From a bacterium (GTDB taxonomy: Bacteria; Patescibacteriota; Saccharimonadia; Saccharimonadales; AWTP1-31): a stretch of 52,011 bases of DNA. This document shows, in pieces, positions 4,245 to 26,417 of the stretch (position 1 is its first letter; every line of letters starts with the position of its first letter). The stretch is from positions 1 through 52,011 of the forward strand of contig JAUHZB010000006.1 in the NCBI GenBank assembly GCA_030426125.1, read 5' to 3'. The notes under the pieces were generated by a model. The model was given only the letters and a program-made list of their open reading frames with translations, had not been told where the DNA came from and did no database searches. Made by a program: the position numbers and the translations under genes.

Positions 4245-4553
4245 ATGGATGTAAATAGAGGCATTGAAGTTGGGCTAGAAAATATCCCGAGAACGAAAGT
4301 AGACCGCCTTGAAGAATTAACCGAAACACGGTGGCAAGAGCTGGCAAACTGCGTTGAATCCGATCCAAATATATTTTTTCCAGAAAATAAAAAAGATGAT
4401 AGAGAAGCTAAAGAAATTTGTAAACAGTGTGATGTTCGTACCGAATGCTTAGAATTTTCTTTACAAACCAATCAGGAGGTTGGTATTTGGGGTGGCAAAA
4501 ATGAGGATGAGAGACGTAGAATGCGTAGGCAACTAAGGGTCAGTGGTATTTAA
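4245..4553 (+). CDS. whiB: WhiB family Fe-S transcriptional regulator
   Basis: Four Cys (C..DPNIFFP..ICKQCDVRTEC), GIWGG turn, basic C-terminus. Confidence 0.92.
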   Translation: MDVNRGIEVGLENIPRTKVDRLEELTETRWQELANCVESDPNIFFPENKKDDREAKEICKQCDVRTECLEFSLQTNQEVGIWGGKNEDERRRMRRQLRVSGI

Positions 4554-16798: not shown

Positions 16799-17725
16799 TT
16801 ATCTTCCTATACTATTACTATCTAATGTCATACTTGATCGCTTCTTCCGATACAGCCCAAAAGTTGCAACAGTTAAAGCTCCTGCTAGAATTCGTTTCGG
16901 CCAATCATTGGGAGCTGGATTTTTCAAACGACTTTCTTCGAGACTATCGCTAATTTGATCTACCATTTCTTCTACATTTGCTTCTTCAACGTCAAAATAT
17001 TCACCATTAGTTTGCTTGGTAACCTCTTTAAATCCTTCGACTGAACTTGGATTAGTAGTCTCACCTTCAACATTGGCTACAAATACAGGAATATTCTCGG
17101 CTTCAGTCCGAGCTAAAATATCCGCATTATTACCAAACGTATTTCCATTAGTAATAACTAACACACCCGATGCACTCTGGTTACCGATTTCTTTCCTGCG
17201 TGTTTCTTCGATCTTATCTACTGCTTGGTTAAAACCATCAGCTAATGGTGCATTACCAAATGGCTCATCTTCACCAACCTCAGTTGGCTGGGCAGTCTCT
17301 ACTGCGCCAGAACCAGCTACGTATGCTGTAGCCTCTACTTCATTTGGGTTGTCAAACGAAGCTGTCAATAGGTTGATACTACCAATAGCTGGCTGATCAC
17401 CCATTTCTGTTGCTCCAGAGTGATCGACAACAATACCAAGCTTCGGTGATTGAGCTTCAATATCGTTTGGTTCCCACACTTCGTTGTTTAGAAGACCAAG
17501 TGATGCACCAGCAAACACGATTGGTGTTAGCGCAAGAGCACCAACTCTACGTAATCTAGATACTTCTGGTTCCTGCAAGGCTATACCGATTTCACCAGAT
17601 AGTTGACTTCTATTATTAGAAACATTTCTACTGGCAATATATTCAGTAGCTAGACCAGCACCAGCGCCAGCCATAACACCTACATATTCAGAGTAGTTAC
17701 CAATGGTCTCAATAATTTGACTCAT
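16799..17725 (-). CDS. membrane-anchored vWA domain protein (BatA-like)
   Basis: IVVDHSG MIDAS-like motif, VLVITNG, NIPVF, TNGEYF, C-terminal TM; upstream of MoxR. Start moved to ATG 17725. Confidence 0.75.
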   Translation of the reverse strand: MSQIIETIGNYSEYVGVMAGAGAGLATEYIASRNVSNNRSQLSGEIGIALQEPEVSRLRRVGALALTPIVFAGASLGLLNNEVWEPNDIEAQSPKLGIVVDHSGATEMGDQPAIGSINLLTASFDNPNEVEATAYVAGSGAVETAQPTEVGEDEPFGNAPLADGFNQAVDKIEETRRKEIGNQSASGVLVITNGNTFGNNADILARTEAENIPVFVANVEGETTNPSSVEGFKEVTKQTNGEYFDVEEANVEEMVDQISDSLEESRLKNPAPNDWPKRILAGALTVATFGLYRKKRSSMTLDSNSIGR

Positions 17726-17778
17726 GTCATATACAATACACCAAAAGTGTAATTTTGTCAATAATATTCTAGTAATGT

Positions 17779-19962
17779 TTATCTGCTGGTCTCAGTAGTT
17801 TTTTCAGCTAAGTGACCCTTCTTCGGCATAGTAAAACCAAAAGTAGATCCTTTGTTCTCTTCGCTCTTAAATATTATCGCCCCACCTTGAGCAATTATGA
17901 CCTTTTTAGCCATAAATAGTCCTAGTCCAGTACCATCGGGACGGGCTTTCTTGGCATTTCCTGCTCTATAGAACTTGCTAAACAGATGATGTTGTTCGTT
18001 TTTCGGTACTCCTAGACCATCGTCAACAACTGTAAACTGGATACTATTACCTAGGTCCTCTAACTTCACTTCAATATGTCCGTCTTTAGGGGTGTAGTGG
18101 AGGGCATTATCTGTGAAGTTCATTATAACCTGCCGAATCTTGGTTTCATCTAGTGACATTACAGGGAATTTAGCTGGCTTTTTGTAAGTTAGCGTCTGAT
18201 TCTTACTATTAGCTACTTCTTGGAGTTGAGCCATTTCAGCCTCAATTACGTCAGCTAGCTGAGTTGGCTTATTCTCTATGACAAATTTACCAGTTCTAAG
18301 TCTAGAAACATTCAATAGGTCGGCTATAAGGTAAACCATCCTTTGACTACTTGAAAAGGCCTGATTAAGTAAGTCTTTTTGTTGCTTAGATATCTTGCCA
18401 ACGTCACCCTCAACGACCATGGATAGATAGCCTTTAACAGAGGTAAGCGGGGTTCTAAGCTGGTGAGAGGCCATACTGATGAATTCATCTTTAGTCTCAT
18501 CTAGTGCCTTTAGTTTTTCGTTGGCTTTACGGAGATCACGGGTAGCTTCATTTACTTTATCTTGCAAGGTAACTGTAAATTCTTGGATCTCTTCAAAACG
18601 TAGGGCGTTCTGGATGGCGATAACCAGCTCATTACTAATAATTTCAATAACCCGAATATCCTCTTTGCTGTAAGGATTTCCGCTTTTTTTACCCCCGAAG
18701 ATTAAGTAACCAATCTCTTGATGTGTAGAGCCAGTTGTGTACATCCTTTTTGCAACTGTAATATTTGACTCCAATAACTTCTTCTTTAATTTAGAATTCA
18801 CAGATTCAATTTCATCTGTGACGATTAACTTATGTCTTTGTTTATCCACTACATTAACCACCTCTACAATATCCTCCTGGTTTAACTCGATGTTACCGCT
18901 TCCAATGATTCTTTGTGGTATTTTCTTTGAGCCTTGAATACTAAACGCGCAAAACTCACACTTCATGGTTTCCTCAATTAACTCAGCGCTCTCCTGTAAC
19001 AAACTTTTTAATTCAATATTTCCTACTAGAACATTGTTTAGTGAGTTTAAAAATTGCTGAGGATCATAAGCATCTTGATAGAAAAGCTTATTGGAGACAC
19101 GATTGAAAAATTGTTTAATTTTTTCAAAACTAAATATTAATGGCACAACTAGTACAACAGATAGCACCTGTCTGGTTAATTCCTGATCAGGGGCATCAAA
19201 GATGTTATTCACCAAACCGAATAAACTTATACTGTAAATAAAAGCAAGTGTACCGATGATGAGAATATAGGCGACTGACCTTGCCACAGCAGCTTTAATA
19301 TCGAACATCTTTTTTGCAACAATAGCATATGCTATCAATCCTGAAAAAATTACTGAATACAACGGACTTAAAGTAACAAAGAACCTACTATCAAAAAATA
19401 TTGGAACAATAAAATTGCCCAATGGACCAATTGTGTACATCAAAATAACACCAAACAGGAAATACTGAAGCTGCACCCTCACACCCCCCTTAGCATTGAG
19501 GGTCCGTTTAATTAATAACACCAACCCGCCAAGAGCAAATATTAATGCGTGTGGAATAAAAAGAATCATGGCAGGACCGGGAACTGGTGAATTATTCTTA
19601 AAGTCAACAAATAAGAAAGAAGTTAATGCTGATATAGCAGTGATGATGGAATATGTTATCGCTATTATGTATCGTTTTTTCTTAAACAATCTGGATGATC
19701 CAGAGGGAAATACTCTTGACAATAAAAAGAAAAAAGTATTTTGTAAAACCACAAAAAGCATAATCCATCTTATCCAAACAAGAGTTGCCCCATCGTTAAC
19801 TGTATGTAATGAAAAATAAGTAGTTATAGACCAAAGCACTAAACTAACCGTTAAGCCTGCGAATAATTTACTTACTATACTTTTACTGTTCTTAATTAAT
19901 ACAACTAATGCTATTAGTGAGGTGGCAACTGTGCCAATAATCAAGATTCCGAATTCAATCAT
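17779..19962 (-). CDS. sensor histidine kinase with N-terminal 7TM-type sensor, GAF-like domain, HisKA and HATPase
   Basis: About 9 TM helices; H-box FISMASHQLRTP, N-box NFTDNALHY, G1 DDGLG, G2 GTGLGL. Confidence 0.95.
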   Translation of the reverse strand: MIEFGILIIGTVATSLIALVVLIKNSKSIVSKLFAGLTVSLVLWSITTYFSLHTVNDGATLVWIRWIMLFVVLQNTFFFLLSRVFPSGSSRLFKKKRYIIAITYSIITAISALTSFLFVDFKNNSPVPGPAMILFIPHALIFALGGLVLLIKRTLNAKGGVRVQLQYFLFGVILMYTIGPLGNFIVPIFFDSRFFVTLSPLYSVIFSGLIAYAIVAKKMFDIKAAVARSVAYILIIGTLAFIYSISLFGLVNNIFDAPDQELTRQVLSVVLVVPLIFSFEKIKQFFNRVSNKLFYQDAYDPQQFLNSLNNVLVGNIELKSLLQESAELIEETMKCEFCAFSIQGSKKIPQRIIGSGNIELNQEDIVEVVNVVDKQRHKLIVTDEIESVNSKLKKKLLESNITVAKRMYTTGSTHQEIGYLIFGGKKSGNPYSKEDIRVIEIISNELVIAIQNALRFEEIQEFTVTLQDKVNEATRDLRKANEKLKALDETKDEFISMASHQLRTPLTSVKGYLSMVVEGDVGKISKQQKDLLNQAFSSSQRMVYLIADLLNVSRLRTGKFVIENKPTQLADVIEAEMAQLQEVANSKNQTLTYKKPAKFPVMSLDETKIRQVIMNFTDNALHYTPKDGHIEVKLEDLGNSIQFTVVDDGLGVPKNEQHHLFSKFYRAGNAKKARPDGTGLGLFMAKKVIIAQGGAIIFKSEENKGSTFGFTMPKKGHLAEKTTETSR

Positions 19963-20008
19963 TAGATATATTATAGTGTTAATGCTTGTTTTTAGAAAAA
20001 GTATTTTA

Positions 20009-21145
20009 TCAGGAATTAATTAACTTTTTAAAAAACTTATCTCTCGCTTCTTGAGTATCACCGTGATTAGGCTGTATATTTAATACTTCGTTGAATTTTA
20101 TATGCTTCCTTAAGCTTGGCATATCTTCAGATAATGCAATTCTTTTTGTTATATATGCAGCCAAACCACAAACGATATTTACTGTGCCGTACAGGTGAGG
20201 TCTTGAAACTAAAGTATTGCCGACTTCTGACAACGATTTAAAATTTCTGAAGGATATATGCTCTGGTCCCACTATTTTCATAGCATACTTGGCTTTATCA
20301 GATTCACTCATCTTTTTATGTAAAAGATCGTCTGTAATATCTCCCAACAAACCATGGAAAATATCAGCTTCTGGATGCAAGTCAAATCTTTCAATATCAA
20401 CTAAAATACTATCTTCCAAGCTAGTTAACATGACTACTGGTATTTTCGCTTTTTTGGCCTCAAGTCGTAATTTCACCTTCATAGAAAAGTCATCTACTAC
20501 ATCAAAAACGATATCAAGTTTGTTCATGCCAAAAATAAAATCGTTCAAATTATCGTCATTTAATCCCTTATCGAAAATTGACACTTCAGCATAGGGGTCT
20601 ATCTCATATATTTCCTGGGCAGTAACAACAGTTTTTTTCAATTCCACACTTGGAAGACCTACTCTTACTCTATTTAAATTGGTGGTTTCAAAAATATCCG
20701 TGTCAGCGACTTTTATGTTGCTTGAAATTCCACTATATATCAACGCTAGCGCTATTCCATTCCCAAATGATAATCCTGCTATTCCGGCATTAAAGTTTTT
20801 TAATATTTCTTTTTCCTTTTCCGTTATTAGGTGACTCGTGCGATTTGTCCTAAGATCGTAATACTCAGCATGAGGAAGCATGTGAAATAGTAAACCACTC
20901 CAAGGAAAATAAACATAATTACCGCACAAACCATCTGGACTTACTCTAGAATTCACAAATTCATCTAGTGCAAGCGGGTATTGTTCACTATTAATTAATC
21001 CGGGATTTTTTATTTCAAATGTTTCTCTAAGCTGAGATTTATAAATATCTCTAAAACCCCATAATTTCATGCTTTTTAATTTATCTAGTTGTTCTAAAGT
21101 GTACTTACCTTCTTCTAATATAAGCGGTTGAACTCTATCCTGCAT
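20009..21145 (-). CDS. ThiF/E1-like adenylyltransferase (Rv1355c-like N-terminal region)
   Basis: VYFPW, LRTNR..LIT..E, GIAGLSFG, ADTD.FE.TNLNR, EIDPY, DVVDDF..K. Confidence 0.88.
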   Translation of the reverse strand: MQDRVQPLILEEGKYTLEQLDKLKSMKLWGFRDIYKSQLRETFEIKNPGLINSEQYPLALDEFVNSRVSPDGLCGNYVYFPWSGLLFHMLPHAEYYDLRTNRTSHLITEKEKEILKNFNAGIAGLSFGNGIALALIYSGISSNIKVADTDIFETTNLNRVRVGLPSVELKKTVVTAQEIYEIDPYAEVSIFDKGLNDDNLNDFIFGMNKLDIVFDVVDDFSMKVKLRLEAKKAKIPVVMLTSLEDSILVDIERFDLHPEADIFHGLLGDITDDLLHKKMSESDKAKYAMKIVGPEHISFRNFKSLSEVGNTLVSRPHLYGTVNIVCGLAAYITKRIALSEDMPSLRKHIKFNEVLNIQPNHGDTQEARDKFFKKLINS

Positions 21146-21146
21146 C

Positions 21147-22679
21147 CTATTTTTCCTTTCTTACCCATTTCTGTTTAGTCCCCGGCCTAAAATACTCCGG
21201 GCTTTCGTATTCCCACAAAACAACATCTGGCTTTGCCTCATCGCCAATCATACCAAAGGTCTCCCTATATTCTGAACTCTCACTTAATAAAGCTTCGTGT
21301 AAGATTTTTTGTAACTTTTTAGTTAATTCTTCCGTTACTTTTTGGCCATACTTCATCTCTGCATGGATATTTAACTTTTGTCTACCTTTGTCTGTATAGT
21401 CAACATACATAGTGAATTTACCTGTGACAAGTTCCTCCAAATGACCGGCTTGTAACCCGCGTCGGATTGTATCTGGATAGATTAAGAAAGCATAATAGCT
21501 CACACTAAAGTCGTTTCTTTCATATACGTATACATAAGGTAGATTCCAGAGGGTTTCATTGAAGCTATACTTCTTAGACGCTTGATCGATGTCATAACCC
21601 AACTCTTTCATCGTTCTCTTTACCTGACTCCTATCGATGACTCCCCCATAATCTTTAAGATCGTATCTAACTAAAGGGATTCCACTATATGCACTACATA
21701 TCAGATTATCTCCGTCCTGCTCAAAGAAAAACAATTCAGGGTTATATTGAGTTAAAGTCGGCTGTTTAATAGGGTCTGGAAGTAAAGTCTTTAGCTTATT
21801 ATCGGATATTAAGGACCGCCTTACATATATACTCTCAGGGGTCTCATGCGACATAGTCCCTAAATCTACTGTTCCATAGTGATTTAAAGAGCTCTTATAT
21901 GGATCTTTTACGGATGTTTTCTTCAATACATAATCTCTGAAAGTTTCTGTAAATGCTTCCGCAGAATATACAACTCCTAAGTGATAATCTTCCCACTTAA
22001 TACCCTGTCTCTCGCCATCATCCAAAATATCTTTCAAAAACGGAGCATAAGCCCCGATTATCACTTGATCAAAACTACTGCCTAGTTGTTTTACTGCATT
22101 GATGACCTCTTGCTTGTGAATCCCTGGGGTAATCAAACTAAGATCATAGCCCCCATTTTCAGACACTATCTTCAGTGCTTCATATGTAAACAGTCCACCG
22201 ATCCACGCCCCCATCGGAAACGCTACAATGTACAAAGTACTCTTCTTGTTTATCTGAAAATTTGACCTTAAATATAACTCGGCCATCATTGCGTATTGCC
22301 AATCTTGTGATGTCTCCCTAGGAAAATAATATGGCTCACCTGTAGATCCAGACGTAGTGGATATCACCCACTGCCCATGATCAAATTCACCGTTCCAGCA
22401 TAATTCTTCTTTAGGGTACTTTCTTAAATAGTTATTTTTGTCTATTGTAGGTACTTTTTTAAAATCCTTAATACTGCGGATTTCTTGGTGTTTAATATTA
22501 TGATTCTTTAAGAAATCTTTATAAGCTGGGACGTTTTCGGCCATTTCATGAAACAGCTTTAAGGCTCTTCTTTCGCCCCTTTTTTGCCACAACTCTTCGG
22601 ACTCCGTAGCTAATCGATTATGTAATAATTCTGCACTTCTATAACCACGGGGCAAGAGTAATTTCGTCATATAAACCAA
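21147..22679 (-). CDS. phenylacetate-CoA ligase (PaaK)/F390-synthetase-like adenylate-forming enzyme
   Basis: NVPAY..F, VP.IDK..Y, AMP-binding loop TTSGSTGEP, NHYGTVD, PLVRYDLKD. Confidence 0.88.
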   Translation of the reverse strand: MVYMTKLLLPRGYRSAELLHNRLATESEELWQKRGERRALKLFHEMAENVPAYKDFLKNHNIKHQEIRSIKDFKKVPTIDKNNYLRKYPKEELCWNGEFDHGQWVISTTSGSTGEPYYFPRETSQDWQYAMMAELYLRSNFQINKKSTLYIVAFPMGAWIGGLFTYEALKIVSENGGYDLSLITPGIHKQEVINAVKQLGSSFDQVIIGAYAPFLKDILDDGERQGIKWEDYHLGVVYSAEAFTETFRDYVLKKTSVKDPYKSSLNHYGTVDLGTMSHETPESIYVRRSLISDNKLKTLLPDPIKQPTLTQYNPELFFFEQDGDNLICSAYSGIPLVRYDLKDYGGVIDRSQVKRTMKELGYDIDQASKKYSFNETLWNLPYVYVYERNDFSVSYYAFLIYPDTIRRGLQAGHLEELVTGKFTMYVDYTDKGRQKLNIHAEMKYGQKVTEELTKKLQKILHEALLSESSEYRETFGMIGDEAKPDVVLWEYESPEYFRPGTKQKWVRKEK

Positions 22680-22811
22680 TTATACCTAGAATTATCAATA
22701 TGTCAGTTGTATATTACTCAACTACTTATGAAAACCCTCATACTTTACATGTTATTGTTTTAGTTGTATAATTCACAAATACTCGAATAATAATGATTTT
22801 CAAAAGTAAAC

Positions 22812-23951
22812 ATGTCTTTAATATCAAACAGACTAAATAATTTCGATAGTAGTGACTTCAGAGATGTCTTTTTAAGACAGCAATCAATAATTGATCCCAT
22901 CGATCTCAGCATAGGTCTCCCAGAGGATCTAACCCCTACCCCAATAAAAGAAGCTGGCATCAATGCGATAATGCAAGACAAGACCATATACACCCCTAGC
23001 AATGGTATACCTGAGCTAAGAGAAGCCCTATCTAACAAATTTAAGACTAAAAATAATATAAACGTAAGTCCAGAGCAGGTTGCGGTTGTCCCTGGGCTAA
23101 CAACTGGTCTGCTGCTTGTATATTTAGCTATTCTAGATCCTGGTGACGAAGTTATCGTTATGGAGCCAGCCTACCCACCATATACTTCGTTGGTTACTGC
23201 TATAGGCGGTAGGGTTGTAACCATCCCTACCTTTCCCTCTTTTCAGCCAGACATTCCATTAATTGAAGCAAGTATTACATCAAAAACTAAGGCTATAGTA
23301 GTTAACTCCCCTAACAACCCCACTGGTGCAGTTTACAGTAAAGAAACTCTGATAAAACTAGCTAAGATAGCTGATGAACACAATATATTGATTATCTCTG
23401 ATGAGATTTATGAACATTTTGTTTACGAAGGGGAACACTTCAGTATCGGAAGCATATACCCCAACACCATAACAATGAATGGTTTCTCGAAAGAATATGC
23501 AATGACTGGCTGGAGATTAGGCTACGTCGCTGGACCGCTTAAGATAATAGAAGCAATAAACGAACTTCAACAGTATATGGTCATGTCATCATCTTCTATA
23601 GCTCAATATGCAGCACTGGAAGCAATCAAGCAACCAGGCGGGCAGATGCGTAATAAATACCTAAAGAAACGTAACTATTTATTAAAAAGATTGACAGAAA
23701 TGGGTTATTCAGTTGAAGGAGCCCAGGGCGCATTTTATATGTTTATCCAAGCTCCGGCCGATATGGTCGATTTAGACTTTGTTGAAAAGGCCGCCGACCA
23801 TGATGTCCTAATCGTGCCCGGTAGGGCTTTTGCTAGCAGGCATGGTTATTTCAGAATTTCATATGGTAGCAGTATGGAAACGCTAGAAAAAGGTCTTGAC
23901 CAGATAGAGATAATTACCAGAGAGTTAAATAGCCGAAAAACTACTCTTTGA
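22812..23951 (+). CDS. PLP-dependent class I/II aminotransferase
   Basis: DLSIG.P, GIPELR, NSPNNPTG, SDEIY, GFSKEYAMTGWRLG (PLP lysine). Confidence 0.95.
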   Translation: MSLISNRLNNFDSSDFRDVFLRQQSIIDPIDLSIGLPEDLTPTPIKEAGINAIMQDKTIYTPSNGIPELREALSNKFKTKNNINVSPEQVAVVPGLTTGLLLVYLAILDPGDEVIVMEPAYPPYTSLVTAIGGRVVTIPTFPSFQPDIPLIEASITSKTKAIVVNSPNNPTGAVYSKETLIKLAKIADEHNILIISDEIYEHFVYEGEHFSIGSIYPNTITMNGFSKEYAMTGWRLGYVAGPLKIIEAINELQQYMVMSSSSIAQYAALEAIKQPGGQMRNKYLKKRNYLLKRLTEMGYSVEGAQGAFYMFIQAPADMVDLDFVEKAADHDVLIVPGRAFASRHGYFRISYGSSMETLEKGLDQIEIITRELNSRKTTL

Positions 23952-24038
23952 TGTAAACCAGACACTCAACCATATTCAATTTAACTATAGAGACCTACAA
24001 AGATTGTCTTTAAAGACATTTTACTTTACTATTTATTT

Positions 24039-24407
24039 ATGGCTAAAAAAATCGCAATAGTCGAAGATGACCTAGCTATCAGTACAATGTATCGGATTAA
24101 ATTCCAGCAAGAAGGCTATGATGTCGAATCTGCGGACAACGGTAAGGTCGGCTTAGAACTGTGCGGAAAAATGAACCCGGATATCGTCCTACTAGATTTA
24201 ATGATGCCCGAAATGACCGGTGAAGAAATGCTAACCGCAATGCGAAAAACCTCTTGGGGTAAAAACATAAAAGTAATCATCCTAACAAACATGGGTGAAC
24301 AAGAAATCCCTGAAAAAGTAAAACAACTAGATGTCACTTCGGTAATCCTTAAAGCCGATATGACCCCTAGGCAAGTAGCTGACGTAGTAAAAGGCGTAAT
24401 TAAGTAA
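24039..24407 (+). CDS. single-domain response regulator (receiver)
   Basis: IVEDD, LLDLMMP phospho-acceptor Asp, ILT, ILKA; no output domain. Confidence 0.95.
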   Translation: MAKKIAIVEDDLAISTMYRIKFQQEGYDVESADNGKVGLELCGKMNPDIVLLDLMMPEMTGEEMLTAMRKTSWGKNIKVIILTNMGEQEIPEKVKQLDVTSVILKADMTPRQVADVVKGVIK

Positions 24408-24417
24408 CTCCTCTACA

Positions 24418-25743
24418 ATGAAAGTCGCCATATTAGGATACGGTACCCAGGGTAGATCTGCATACCAATATTGGAACAAAGGTAATGACATTACCATATG
24501 TGATCAGAATACAGACATAGATTTACCTAGTGACGTAGCAAAACAACTAGGCAATAATTACTTAGATAATCTTGAAAATTTCGACCTTATTGTCCGCTCC
24601 CCTTCAGTTCATCCCAAAGATATCATTAAAGCTAACGGCCAACGAATCAGCCGAAAAGTAACTACGGTAACTGAGGAATTCTTTAGAAACTGCCCAGCTA
24701 AAATAATTGGTGTTACCGGCACCAAGGGTAAAGGTACCACCTCTAGCCTAATCACTACAATCCTAAAAACAGCTGGCAAGACAGTTCACCTTGGTGGAAA
24801 TATTGGGGTACCACCGCTAGATATGCTAGATTATGAGATTCAATCTTCAGATTATGTAGTGCTAGAGCTAGCCAACTTCCAATTAATTGATCTAGGTGTA
24901 TCGCCTAGTATTGCAGTTTGCCTAATGGTAGTACCAGAGCATTTAGACTGGCATCGCGATATCGATGAATACATAGAGGCAAAACAGAATTTATTCCGAC
25001 ATCAAAGATCTAAAGATCTAGCAATTTACAACCGTCTAAATGTCCTATCCTGCGAGGTCGCCGAAGTATCGCCAGCTATGAAGATGTCATACGCCGTCCC
25101 GAATGAAGACCAAACAGGTGATGATCATAATGGCTGCTACGTAGAAGGCGACTCGATCTATATTGATGACCAAAAAGTGTGTCAAACTTCTGACGTTGCC
25201 CTCCTAGGAAGACATAACCTGGAAAATGCCTGCGCCGCTATTATGGCCACCTGGGAAATTATTGATCATGATCCAGAAATAATAATGAAAGCTCTGAGAT
25301 CATTCAAAGGAATGGAGTACCGACTTGAGCTCATAAGGGAACATCGGGGGGTGAAATACTATAATGATTCATTCGGTACAACCCCTGAAACTGCAATTGT
25401 GGCTATCAAAGCCATTCCTGGCCCCAAGATACTAATTGTTGGTGGCTCAGATAAAAAATCTAGCTATGACCAACTAGCCGAAGTTATTAAGCAAGAAAAT
25501 GTCAAAAAAGTAATTCAAATAGGAAAGATGGGACCGGTTATTGAAAAAGAGCTCCAGAGCATTGGTTTTACAGATGTTATTCCTGGCGGTACCTCAATGA
25601 AAGATATCGTGGAGACTGCCAGCCAACAAGCAGACGAAGGTGACACTGTGTTACTATCGACAGCTTGTGCCAGCTTTGACATGTTCAAAAACTACAAAGA
25701 TCGTGGCGATCAGTATAACCAAGCAGTCAGAAATTTAGCCTAA
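24418..25743 (+). CDS. murD: UDP-N-acetylmuramoyl-L-alanine--D-glutamate ligase
   Basis: GVTGTKGKGTT, GGNIG, VLEL..FQL, EHLDWH, YYNDSFGT, LLSTACASFD.F.NY..RG. Confidence 0.96.
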   Translation: MKVAILGYGTQGRSAYQYWNKGNDITICDQNTDIDLPSDVAKQLGNNYLDNLENFDLIVRSPSVHPKDIIKANGQRISRKVTTVTEEFFRNCPAKIIGVTGTKGKGTTSSLITTILKTAGKTVHLGGNIGVPPLDMLDYEIQSSDYVVLELANFQLIDLGVSPSIAVCLMVVPEHLDWHRDIDEYIEAKQNLFRHQRSKDLAIYNRLNVLSCEVAEVSPAMKMSYAVPNEDQTGDDHNGCYVEGDSIYIDDQKVCQTSDVALLGRHNLENACAAIMATWEIIDHDPEIIMKALRSFKGMEYRLELIREHRGVKYYNDSFGTTPETAIVAIKAIPGPKILIVGGSDKKSSYDQLAEVIKQENVKKVIQIGKMGPVIEKELQSIGFTDVIPGGTSMKDIVETASQQADEGDTVLLSTACASFDMFKNYKDRGDQYNQAVRNLA

Positions 25744-25748
25744 TCTAC

Positions 25749-26417
25749 CTAATCTAACCCTGCCATTATCCGTTTAAGTTGCTTAGCAACCGGTAGTACC
25801 GGTTGAAGTACTGTAGCCTTGCCCGCTACAGTTTTCTGTATTTCTTCCTCGATCCAGTGGTAATGGGTACAGCCGAGCACAATAACATCGGCACCCTTTT
25901 GACAGGCATCCTTCATCTGCTTCTTAATAAGCTGATGCTCTACTTGGTTAGCTTCTATCATAGAAGACCATCTACTGCAGTCTGGCTCTAGAATATCTAC
26001 CTTCGATGCAAACTTTTCTTTGAGCCACTTATACCTATCGCTATCTAATGTTGCTGGAGTTGCACAAACCGCTATACAGTTATTCTTAGTTTGCTCAGCA
26101 GCCGTTTTTACCATCGGTTCCATGCCAATTAAGGGCACAGAAATAACCTTCCTTAGATGACTAATAATATTTGTGGTAACTGTATTACAAGCTATAACAA
26201 TAACTTCGCAGCCATCCTCTACCATTCTATGCAGTAATGGGGTTACTAGCTCTATCAACAGGTCTGGAGACTTGTTACCGTAGGGTATATTCTGAGTATC
26301 TTGAACAAGTTGTATTTGTATATTTTCCAAGTGTTCTTCTAAATAATTGGCAACGGATAAACCGCCAACTCCTGAATCAAAAACCCCAACCTGTATATTT
26401 TTCTTTTTAGGCTTCAC
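25749..26417 (-). CDS. murI: glutamate racemase
   Basis: GVFDSGVGGLSV, PYG.KS, IACNT and LGCTHY catalytic cysteines; GTG start overlaps the upstream TAG. Confidence 0.96.
   Translation of the reverse strand: MKPKKKNIQVGVFDSGVGGLSVANYLEEHLENIQIQLVQDTQNIPYGNKSPDLLIELVTPLLHRMVEDGCEVIVIACNTVTTNIISHLRKVISVPLIGMEPMVKTAAEQTKNNCIAVCATPATLDSDRYKWLKEKFASKVDILEPDCSRWSSMIEANQVEHQLIKKQMKDACQKGADVIVLGCTHYHWIEEEIQKTVAGKATVLQPVLPVAKQLKRIMAGLD

Follow-up and report, generated by a model that had tools for sequence, protein, structure and literature searches.

Synthase genes placed beside the gene of a polytopic membrane kinase are a common layout in bacterial quorum sensing, as in LuxM/LuxN, AinS/AinR, CqsA/CqsS, and the ComQXPA pherotypes, where the variable synthase and the sensor travel together. 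The locus analyzed here has a comparable layout. It lies in contig JAUHZB010000006.1 (GenBank assembly GCA_030426125.1), a stretch of 52,011 nucleotides that was analyzed at its full length and is referred to below as the window. The contig belongs to a bacterium of the order Saccharimonadales (GTDB AWTP1-31), a member of the Candidate Phyla Radiation (CPR), with a genome of 0.90 Mb that is 98% complete. At positions 17,779 to 24,407, a PaaK-like ligase, a ThiF-like adenylating enzyme, and a histidine kinase with a seven-transmembrane (7TM) HisKA_7TM domain and a GAF linker form one minus-strand unit, and an aminotransferase and a lone receiver protein are divergent from it. The best explanation of this arrangement, held with about even confidence, is that the ligase and the ThiF enzyme would make up an N-acyl-amino-acid or oxazolone-type cassette co-transcribed with the kinase.

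The closest described relatives of these enzymes belong to oxazolone pathways. In Mycobacterium tuberculosis, M. smegmatis, and Rhodococcus jostii, the acyltransferase TrzA (Rv1356c) yields N-acyl-tryptophan, which TrzS (Rv1355c), a ThiF-cyclase/flavin-oxidase, converts to N-acyl tryptazolone; cyclization comes first, and a saturated cyclized intermediate was observed when the oxidase was disabled (available portion of PMC12856293). In the TyzA/TyzB/TyzC (Rv2336-Rv2338c) and OxzA/OxzB (Pseudoalteromonas rubra) systems, the available portions of the reports describe the ThiF cyclase and the nitroreductase-superfamily oxidase as separate proteins and an N-acyl amino acid as the intermediate; TyzA resembles FeeM and N-acyl homoserine lactone (AHL) synthases (PMC10404671; 10.1101/2020.06.11.147165). 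The term "histidine kinase" does not occur in the main text of the preprint on the latter system (10.1101/2020.06.11.147165). Enzymes of benzoxazole biosynthesis, namely NatL2, AjiA1, and ClxA, provide a precedent for PaaK-family ester and amide formers, in which an aryl acyl-adenylate is joined to a second substrate without coenzyme A (CoA) (partial text of PMC7204872; PDB 6siw, 6wuq, 9s3l).

The window locus shares with TrzA/TrzS a ThiF enzyme of the same NCBIfam family with presumably conserved adenylation residues, a link to aromatic amino acids, and adjoining signalling genes (cyclic di-GMP genes there, a kinase here), and the oxidase half of TrzS is a separate adjacent gene in relatives of the locus. 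With the Tyz and Oxz systems, these relatives share the split cyclase and oxidase, and FeeM/AHL-synthase-like acyltransferases fill the place of the ligase in other Saccharimonadia. Unlike all of them, the locus has a PaaK-family ligase where the acyl-CoA-dependent TrzA would stand, a ThiF enzyme that is not fused to an oxidase, no oxidase in the genome, and a cassette co-oriented with a 7TM kinase; the organism belongs to the CPR, and searches of its genome returned neither CoaE nor a carrier protein. The PaaK fold is shared with NatL2, AjiA1, and ClxA, but identity is 12-15%, the window ligase is about 75 residues longer, and its partner is a ThiF enzyme rather than an amidohydrolase. As in the quorum-sensing pairs, synthase and kinase adjoin each other and co-vary (taxonomy is a partial confounder), whereas the synthases are not homologous and the receiver lacks an output domain. 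The analogies to CqsA/CqsS and agr drawn in the original prediction are confined to layout.

The pathway kind is known, and the chemistry, rather than being undescribed, is a variant of the described oxazolone pathway. What is new is the exchange of an acyltransferase for a ligase, the oxidase-less subtype, the constant association with a HisKA_7TM kinase whose cassettes can be swapped, and the co-variation of sensor and cassette. A literature search in which subscription journals were not covered returned no paper that connects these genes in Saccharibacteria or in other Patescibacteria.

Enzymes of the cassette

The features of the locus are as follows, with the evidence for each in brackets.

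17779..19962, minus strand: sensor histidine kinase (Pfam, hydropathy, orthologs beside the cassette)
20009..21145, minus strand: ThiF-like adenylating enzyme of the Rv1355c/TrzS kind, cyclase half only (NF005901 match)
21147..22670, minus strand: PaaK-family adenylate-forming ligase (NCBIfam, PDB profile, predicted fold)
22671..22811, no strand: divergent intergenic region with two promoter-like matches (consensus match)
22812..23951, plus strand: class I/II pyridoxal-phosphate aminotransferase, accessory gene of the cassette (Pfam Aminotran_1_2 E 4.1e-70)
24039..24407, plus strand: single-domain CheY-like response regulator (Response_reg E 2.8e-20)
24418..25743, plus strand: MurD, probably a housekeeping gene outside the module (TIGR01087 E 1.2e-98, over cut-off)

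The open reading frames (ORFs) and their layout agree with the original prediction, including the single nucleotide between the ligase stop and the ThiF start. The ThiF-kinase gap measures 46 nt, and a consensus scan returned no terminator-like site in either gap. The divergent region spans the predicted 132 nt when counted from the TTG at 22679 (510 aa), the ligase start given by the ORF lister, but 141 nt from the ATG at 22670 (507 aa), which is the likelier start. It holds the two best promoter-like matches of a 9.5-kb scan (11/12 each, minus strand 22706-22679 and plus strand 22744-22772, facing apart); these are consensus matches only, and the total number of promoter matches is not above that in shuffled sequence. 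The minus-strand -10-like hexamer ends 9 nt ahead of the ligase ATG (22670-22684), and nothing resembling a Shine-Dalgarno sequence can be seen. The ligase transcript may have little or no leader.

The ThiF enzyme (378 aa) matches the Pfam ThiF domain (E 1.1e-14) and, over positions 11-341 of the 722 in the profile, the NCBIfam model NF005901, the "Rv1355c family" (E 9.6e-81). Its score of 272 bits for this model falls under the cut-off of 476, which is set for full-length proteins, since it comprises the cyclase half alone. Other ThiF, MoeB, and TcdA models of NCBIfam match at E 4e-15 to 4e-3, all far under their cut-offs. The Rv1355c profile, from its position 11 on, takes in an N-terminal extension of about 100 residues ahead of the Pfam domain. 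Residues G124, S126, G128, D148, N156, N158, R159, K171, and D218 are at least 90% conserved among 42 Saccharimonadia ThiF proteins, and D218 is presumably the counterpart of the adenylation aspartate D217 of TrzS. Judged by these matches, the enzyme is of the TrzS/TyzB/OxzB oxazolone-cyclase kind (PMC12856293; PMC10404671). This supports the earlier guess of an amino-acid-derived acyl or amide product and makes it specific. Two other roles were considered for the enzyme. A TcdA (ct6A) function, in view of TsaB-like and TsaE genes at 48.6-50.0 kb, was rejected on the TcdA match of E 1e-7 versus 1e-80 for Rv1355c, and an E1-like role in making a ribosomally synthesized and post-translationally modified peptide was rejected since no small ORF recurs across the cassette loci.

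In most ligase loci of the class, ThiF and the kinase are separated by an extra gene of 320-356 aa, whose strand varies. It encodes an Acg-family flavin mononucleotide (FMN) oxidoreductase (NF047509, E 5.7e-47 to 3.7e-62) and also matches positions ~357-650 of the Rv1355c profile; ThiF and this gene together therefore amount to a split TrzS. The window and its genome contain no Acg-family or other nitroreductase-family gene (NF047509, PF00881), and the oxidase is absent as well from five other genomes of the same subtype. The six oxidase-less ThiF proteins are 62-66% identical and form a clade (SH-aLRT 100) nested among oxidase-associated ThiF proteins and spanning five families (f1, f19, f18, f22, f43). 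All nucleotide-binding and Mg residues are kept. Because the clade is supported and multi-family and these residues are retained, the oxidase-less form is regarded as a maintained variant rather than a product of decay.

The ligase has no Pfam match. Its relation to PaaK, claimed in the original prediction, emerges from three lines of evidence that agree with each other. Partial NCBIfam matches name PaaK-like families (E 8.2e-11, 41 bits versus a cut-off of 700; 30 versus 646 for a second model). A profile of the 41-sequence ligase family retrieves PaaK 2y4o from the PDB (E 5.4e-12). Finally, the AlphaFold model (mean confidence, pLDDT, 89.6) has PaaK1 2y27 as its top Foldseek match (E 1.4e-21, TM score normalized to the target 0.75-0.78), with further matches to BT_0428, HCL, GH3.15, and the non-CoA enzymes NatL2, AjiA1, and ClxA (E 1e-16 to 2e-14 for these last three). 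The ligase is accordingly modelled as a PaaK-type two-domain adenylate-forming fold. S107-G108-S109 and K499, which we take to be the phosphate-binding loop and the C-terminal catalytic lysine, are invariant in the 41 family members, and close homologs carry the label Candidatus Saccharimonadales. No CoaE, PP-binding, or classical AMP-binding family member was found in the genome. The ligase is proposed to be a CoA-independent N-acylating enzyme; NatL2, likewise of the PaaK family, works without CoA (PMC7204872). A distant paralog of the ligase (25-30% identity, ~510 aa) was observed at eight further loci, always preceded by an Acg-family FMN oxidoreductase-like gene, with no ThiF alongside and mostly no kinase; this is a second pairing of a ligase with an oxidase. 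Two genomes contain both kinds of ligase.

The aminotransferase adjoins about 19 of 31 ligase loci, including one in which gene calling had missed it, and an ortholog is absent in five of five genomes with other, acyltransferase-type cassettes. It belongs to the cassette, as originally proposed. The divergent side also carries a ScyB-like amino-acid dehydrogenase in three loci (E 7e-87 and 3e-79 for the two that were scanned) and, in one locus each, a prephenate dehydratase, an FkbO-like chorismatase, and a flavin-dependent (FAD) aromatic-hydroxylase-like gene. These unrelated accessory enzymes point to a common theme, as all of them make or handle aromatic acids or oxoacids.

Conservation of the locus was surveyed in a class sample and a phylum sample of 401 genomes each; two unpublished genomes enter only the class tallies for ligase, ThiF, and kinase. 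Within the class, the ligase occurs in 34 genomes, 29 of them at E <=1e-58 and five with the distant paralog only. ThiF occurs in 39, including 28 of the 29 ligase genomes; in the exception, the ligase lies at a contig end. When 31 class loci were compared (the window and 30 fetched loci, one of the unpublished genomes not being among them), ThiF stood beside the ligase in 29 and the kinase was part of the cassette in 28, and all loci with a miss are truncated by a contig end. The phylum sample has the ligase in 43 genomes. At 20 loci outside the class, ThiF adjoins the ligase in 18, 13 contain the oxidase and seven the dehydrogenase, and a polytopic kinase belongs to the cassette in 17 and lies five genes away in one more, with gene order shuffled. 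HisKA_7TM is matched at E <=0.01 by 14 of these 17 kinases, 12 of which are at or over the Pfam cut-off. Because it recurs in 28 of 31 class loci and 17 of 20 outside the class, the arrangement of ligase, ThiF, and kinase is far beyond chance, and the co-conservation of enzymes and kinase that the original prediction called for is borne out across the phylum. One 8.3-kb contig filed under Candidatus Adlerbacteria (L011, MEWX01000018.1) holds a full cassette with MurD, receiver, aminotransferase, ligase (62% identity), ThiF, oxidase, and kinase, and is either a mis-binned Saccharimonadia contig or a transferred cassette.

The kinase and its exchangeable neighbours

The kinase (727 aa) matches HisKA_7TM (PF16927) over residues 7-222 (E 1.1e-9, 38.9 bits versus a cut-off of 28.6), HisKA (E 9.5e-16), and HATPase_c (E 4.6e-25), and hydropathy indicates about 8-9 hydrophobic segments in residues 1-280. 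The 7TM histidine kinase of the original prediction is thus confirmed by matches over the Pfam cut-offs. The GAF assignment is weak in this copy, in which the linker at 318-452 matches GAF_3 at E 0.017; a clear GAF domain is present in long kinases beside the same cassette in other classes (E 1.7e-10, 5.6e-12). The receiver (122 aa) has no output domain and contains D10/D11, D53, T83, and K105. It is 66-73% identical across families, and its divergent position beside the kinase locus is conserved. Relatives also have a second receiver paralog.

Homologs of the sensor part of the kinase (residues 1-470) occur in 273 of the 401 class genomes, versus 29-39 for the enzymes. ThiF is present without the ligase in eleven genomes. 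Nine of these have it immediately upstream of the kinase, either fused to a protein of 277-383 aa or with such a protein ahead of it, and in a tenth a fusion of an acyltransferase-like domain to ThiF lies a few genes upstream of the kinase. In the window's own family, G010 and G011 have a 295-301-aa protein in the slot, and G003 has the same domain fused to ThiF. Iterative domain-wise hidden Markov models (HMMs), built from domain envelopes since fusion proteins bring in ThiF, join the slot proteins into one family.

This slot family is predicted to be a FeeM/AHL-synthase-like GNAT on the basis of fold, ESM features, and two weak-to-moderate Pfam matches. The ESM features (0.94) place it nearest to the FeeM, Acetyltransf_5, and Autoind_synth clusters, and the AlphaFold model (pLDDT 83) matches BjaI, EsaI, MesI, and FeeM 2g0b; the same structural neighbours are reported for TyzA. 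Autoind_synth is matched by the G003 fusion (E 5.5e-4), and one other member matches Acetyltransf_5 (E 6.6e-7) and FeeM (6.4e-4). Members of the A1 group have no Pfam match. Profile searches of the PDB were not significant (A1 nothing meaningful, A2 nothing, A4 LasI at E 0.017), and neither were hhalign comparisons of A1 with A2 (E 0.13) and with the fusion N-terminus (E 0.039).

Among 49 kinase loci, picked by kinase score alone from the better-scoring matches and hence not a random sample, 24 have a FeeM-like GNAT directly upstream and co-oriented, with or without ThiF and sometimes fused to it. The remaining loci have other genes in the slot, such as methyltransferases or pyruvoyl arginine decarboxylase sets. 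In several of the latter, a pyruvoyl-dependent arginine decarboxylase (E ~1e-27) accompanies proteins of 380-630 aa and ~240 aa of no known family, and such a set may be a third cassette type. The genome of the window has no member of the slot acyltransferase family (family HMM, E up to 10). Because the same slot before the same kinase holds a FeeM/AHL-synthase-like enzyme in other Saccharimonadia, the ligase most likely takes the place of the acyltransferase. The simplest reading is non-orthologous displacement, in which the ligase would supply N-acylation by direct ATP-driven coupling.

The sensor domain, suggestively, follows cassette type and not taxonomy. On a tree of 84 sensor domains (28 of whose loci were classed as having an "other" cassette), cassette type needs 24 changes, versus 47.8 after shuffling, and none of 200 shuffles was as low. 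The kinase of the window lies in a clade (support 97) of six ligase-type loci from families f1, f19, f18, f22, f22, and f5, and the kinases of the same-family genomes G010, G011, and G003 lie elsewhere. Compared with G261 and G219, which are of other families and have the same cassette, the window genome shows 50% identity in the sensor and 54-57% in MurD; compared with G010, G011, and G003, the values are 33-38% and 56-61%. The sensor domain thus appears to travel with the cassette, since sensor identity tracks cassette type while MurD identity does not.

Proposed mechanism and alternative explanations

In the first step of the proposed mechanism, the ligase would adenylate a carboxylic acid, probably an aromatic or 2-oxo acid from the aminotransferase, and couple the acyl group directly to an amino acid without CoA, doing the job of the acyltransferases OxzA, TyzA, and TrzA. 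By homology, the TrzS-type ThiF would then adenylate the carboxylate of the N-acyl amino acid and close a 5(4H)-oxazolone ring. The product would be a saturated, reactive oxazolone or a derivative of it rather than the desaturated tyrazolone or tryptazolone type, and saturation is expected because the genome has no flavin oxidase. As suggested by gene context, the HisKA_7TM domain could detect this lipophilic product, or the version made by a relative, within the membrane; the kinase would phosphorylate D53 of the receiver, whose output would be protein contact rather than DNA binding. The cassette chemistry is, on the sequence evidence, fairly likely; that the kinase senses the product is a more tentative proposal, of somewhat less than even likelihood. 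The signal-plus-receptor reading is plausible, and the original interpretation is supported in part, the kinase's reading of the product remaining inference.

Several points weigh against this explanation. Oxidase and acyltransferase, two of the three enzymes that define the oxazolone pathway, are absent here, the ligase scores far under the PaaK cut-offs, and it might ligate CoA instead of forming an amide. The kinase family is found in about seven times as many genomes as the enzymes and other cassettes occupy the same slot, so the kinase is no dedicated receptor. The sensor clades of families f43 and f7 mix cassette types, part of the tree follows taxonomy, and the shuffle test overstates the association because kin share labels. 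Evidence of expression is weak: one study, with three metatranscriptome runs, yielded RNA-library contigs of a relative ~96% identical that span the ligase, aminotransferase, receiver, and MurD but not ThiF or the kinase (missing cover is not proof of anything); transcript ends are not visible in the contigs, and DNA can be present in libraries of this kind. Product, substrate, and ligand are putative throughout, and the receiver has no output domain that would point to a regulatory target.

The explanation that best survives beside the signal reading treats the cassette as co-expressed cargo. The kinase and receiver would sense an outside cue, such as a surface or metabolite of the host or the membrane state. 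The cassette would yield a lipid for the membrane, a compound with protective or antimicrobial action, or a reactive acyl donor for modification of the envelope. The near-universal kinase family beside cassettes that differ or are unrecognizable speaks for it, as do the adjoining MurD and racemase genes and the state of knowledge on oxazolones, whose physiological role is unknown and for which stress or lipid roles are discussed (available portions of PMC12856293 and 10.1101/2020.06.11.147165). On the other side, the sensor domain follows cassette type across GTDB families, the layout of a synthase before a polytopic kinase is kept over phylum-level divergence despite shuffling, and a receiver of this kind is unable to regulate cassette transcription directly. 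This explanation is considered possible, though rather doubtful.

A role in salvage or catabolism of aromatic compounds or amino acids, in which the ligase would be a genuine aryl-CoA ligase partnered by the aminotransferase, with ThiF and the kinase as unrelated neighbours, is quite improbable. The best named matches of the ligase are phenylacetate-CoA ligases, and the aminotransferase, dehydrogenase, and prephenate dehydratase accompany it. However, 50 ORFs of the window scanned against Pfam include no paa genes and no indolepyruvate or 2-oxoacid oxidoreductase family; as the original prediction had stated, thiamine, molybdenum cofactor, and ThiS/MoaD sulfur-carrier families are likewise missing among them. 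The lack of CoaE and carrier proteins, the ligase score of 41 bits, and the ties of ThiF to the ligase at 29 of 31 and 18 of 20 loci also argue against it.

Modification of a small protein or ribosomal peptide by an E1- or MccB-like ThiF, with the ligase in a tailoring role, appears still more improbable. ThiF enzymes commonly adenylate protein C-termini, and this one has the N-terminal extension, but the extension falls within the Rv1355c profile, the cassette loci share no recurrent ThiS, MoaD, ubiquitin-like, or conserved small ORF, and the general ThiF, MoeB, and TcdA models match at 1e-15 or worse. Inherited synteny without functional coupling, to which the many related loci of one class might point, is strongly disfavoured, as order and strand vary between loci while membership is kept and the cassette is patchy (29 of 401 genomes), in families whose other members hold other cassettes.

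Neighbouring genes and implications for Saccharibacteria

The adjacency of receiver and MurD is seen in many loci of relatives. Convergent with MurD lies an Asp/Glu racemase (25749-26417, minus strand), and the MurD-racemase pair recurs beside the receiver in five other loci. Downstream of the kinase, the segment 13404-17761 (minus strand) contains a 320-aa ORF, a MoxR-like AAA ATPase (AAA_3/AAA_5), a 276-aa ORF that faintly matches DUF58, and a 440-aa ORF. In three other genomes the kinase is followed by the same run, and in G261 a VWA protein is found there. The run looks like a MoxR/DUF58/VWA (Bat-like) set and may share the kinase transcript. The 320-aa ORF (16799-17761) was considered as the missing oxidase and rejected, as it has no family match and its counterpart in G261 is the VWA protein. 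A WhiB-family transcription factor lies at 4245-4553 (plus strand, E 1.1e-23); the WhiB family is typical of Actinobacteria, the usual hosts of Saccharibacteria. At the 3' end of the ligase gene, a 2647-nt RNA-library contig from one of the runs matches the gene at ~96% over 1313 nt, diverges exactly at the ligase end (21163), and runs on unlike the ThiF gene of the window. It may come from a near relative with a different ThiF or downstream module, which would fit a module swap at the ligase 3' junction.

A broader reading, which is put forward only tentatively and is judged rather unlikely, is that Patescibacteria possess a phylum-wide pherotype-like locus. One 7TM kinase and CheY-like receiver would be combined with interchangeable synthase cassettes, each with a co-evolving sensor domain: a FeeM-like acyltransferase, an acyltransferase with ThiF, a PaaK-like ligase with ThiF and with or without a flavin oxidase, or sets of the arginine-decarboxylase type. 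If true, it would provide the first receptor and physiological role for oxazolones and N-acyl amino acids, and the first self-made signalling system, between cells or between episymbiont and host, known in CPR bacteria. The signal of the oxidase-less subtype would then be a saturated, chemically reactive oxazolone.

The discovery of oxazolone lipids dates from 2020-2025, and the authors of that work regard the function as the major open question. ThiF chemistry that is wired to a membrane sensor kinase over phylum-level distances leads to a testable ligand-receptor hypothesis for this function. The replacement of an acyltransferase by a ligase suits organisms in which no CoA-synthesis or carrier-protein genes are found, and the ligase would extend the few known CoA-independent PaaK-type ligases. 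The conserved synthase-kinase-receiver locus also offers a handle on how Saccharibacteria episymbionts sense each other or their hosts, and it is a promising candidate for chemical signalling in a group of bacteria with tiny genomes about which little is understood.

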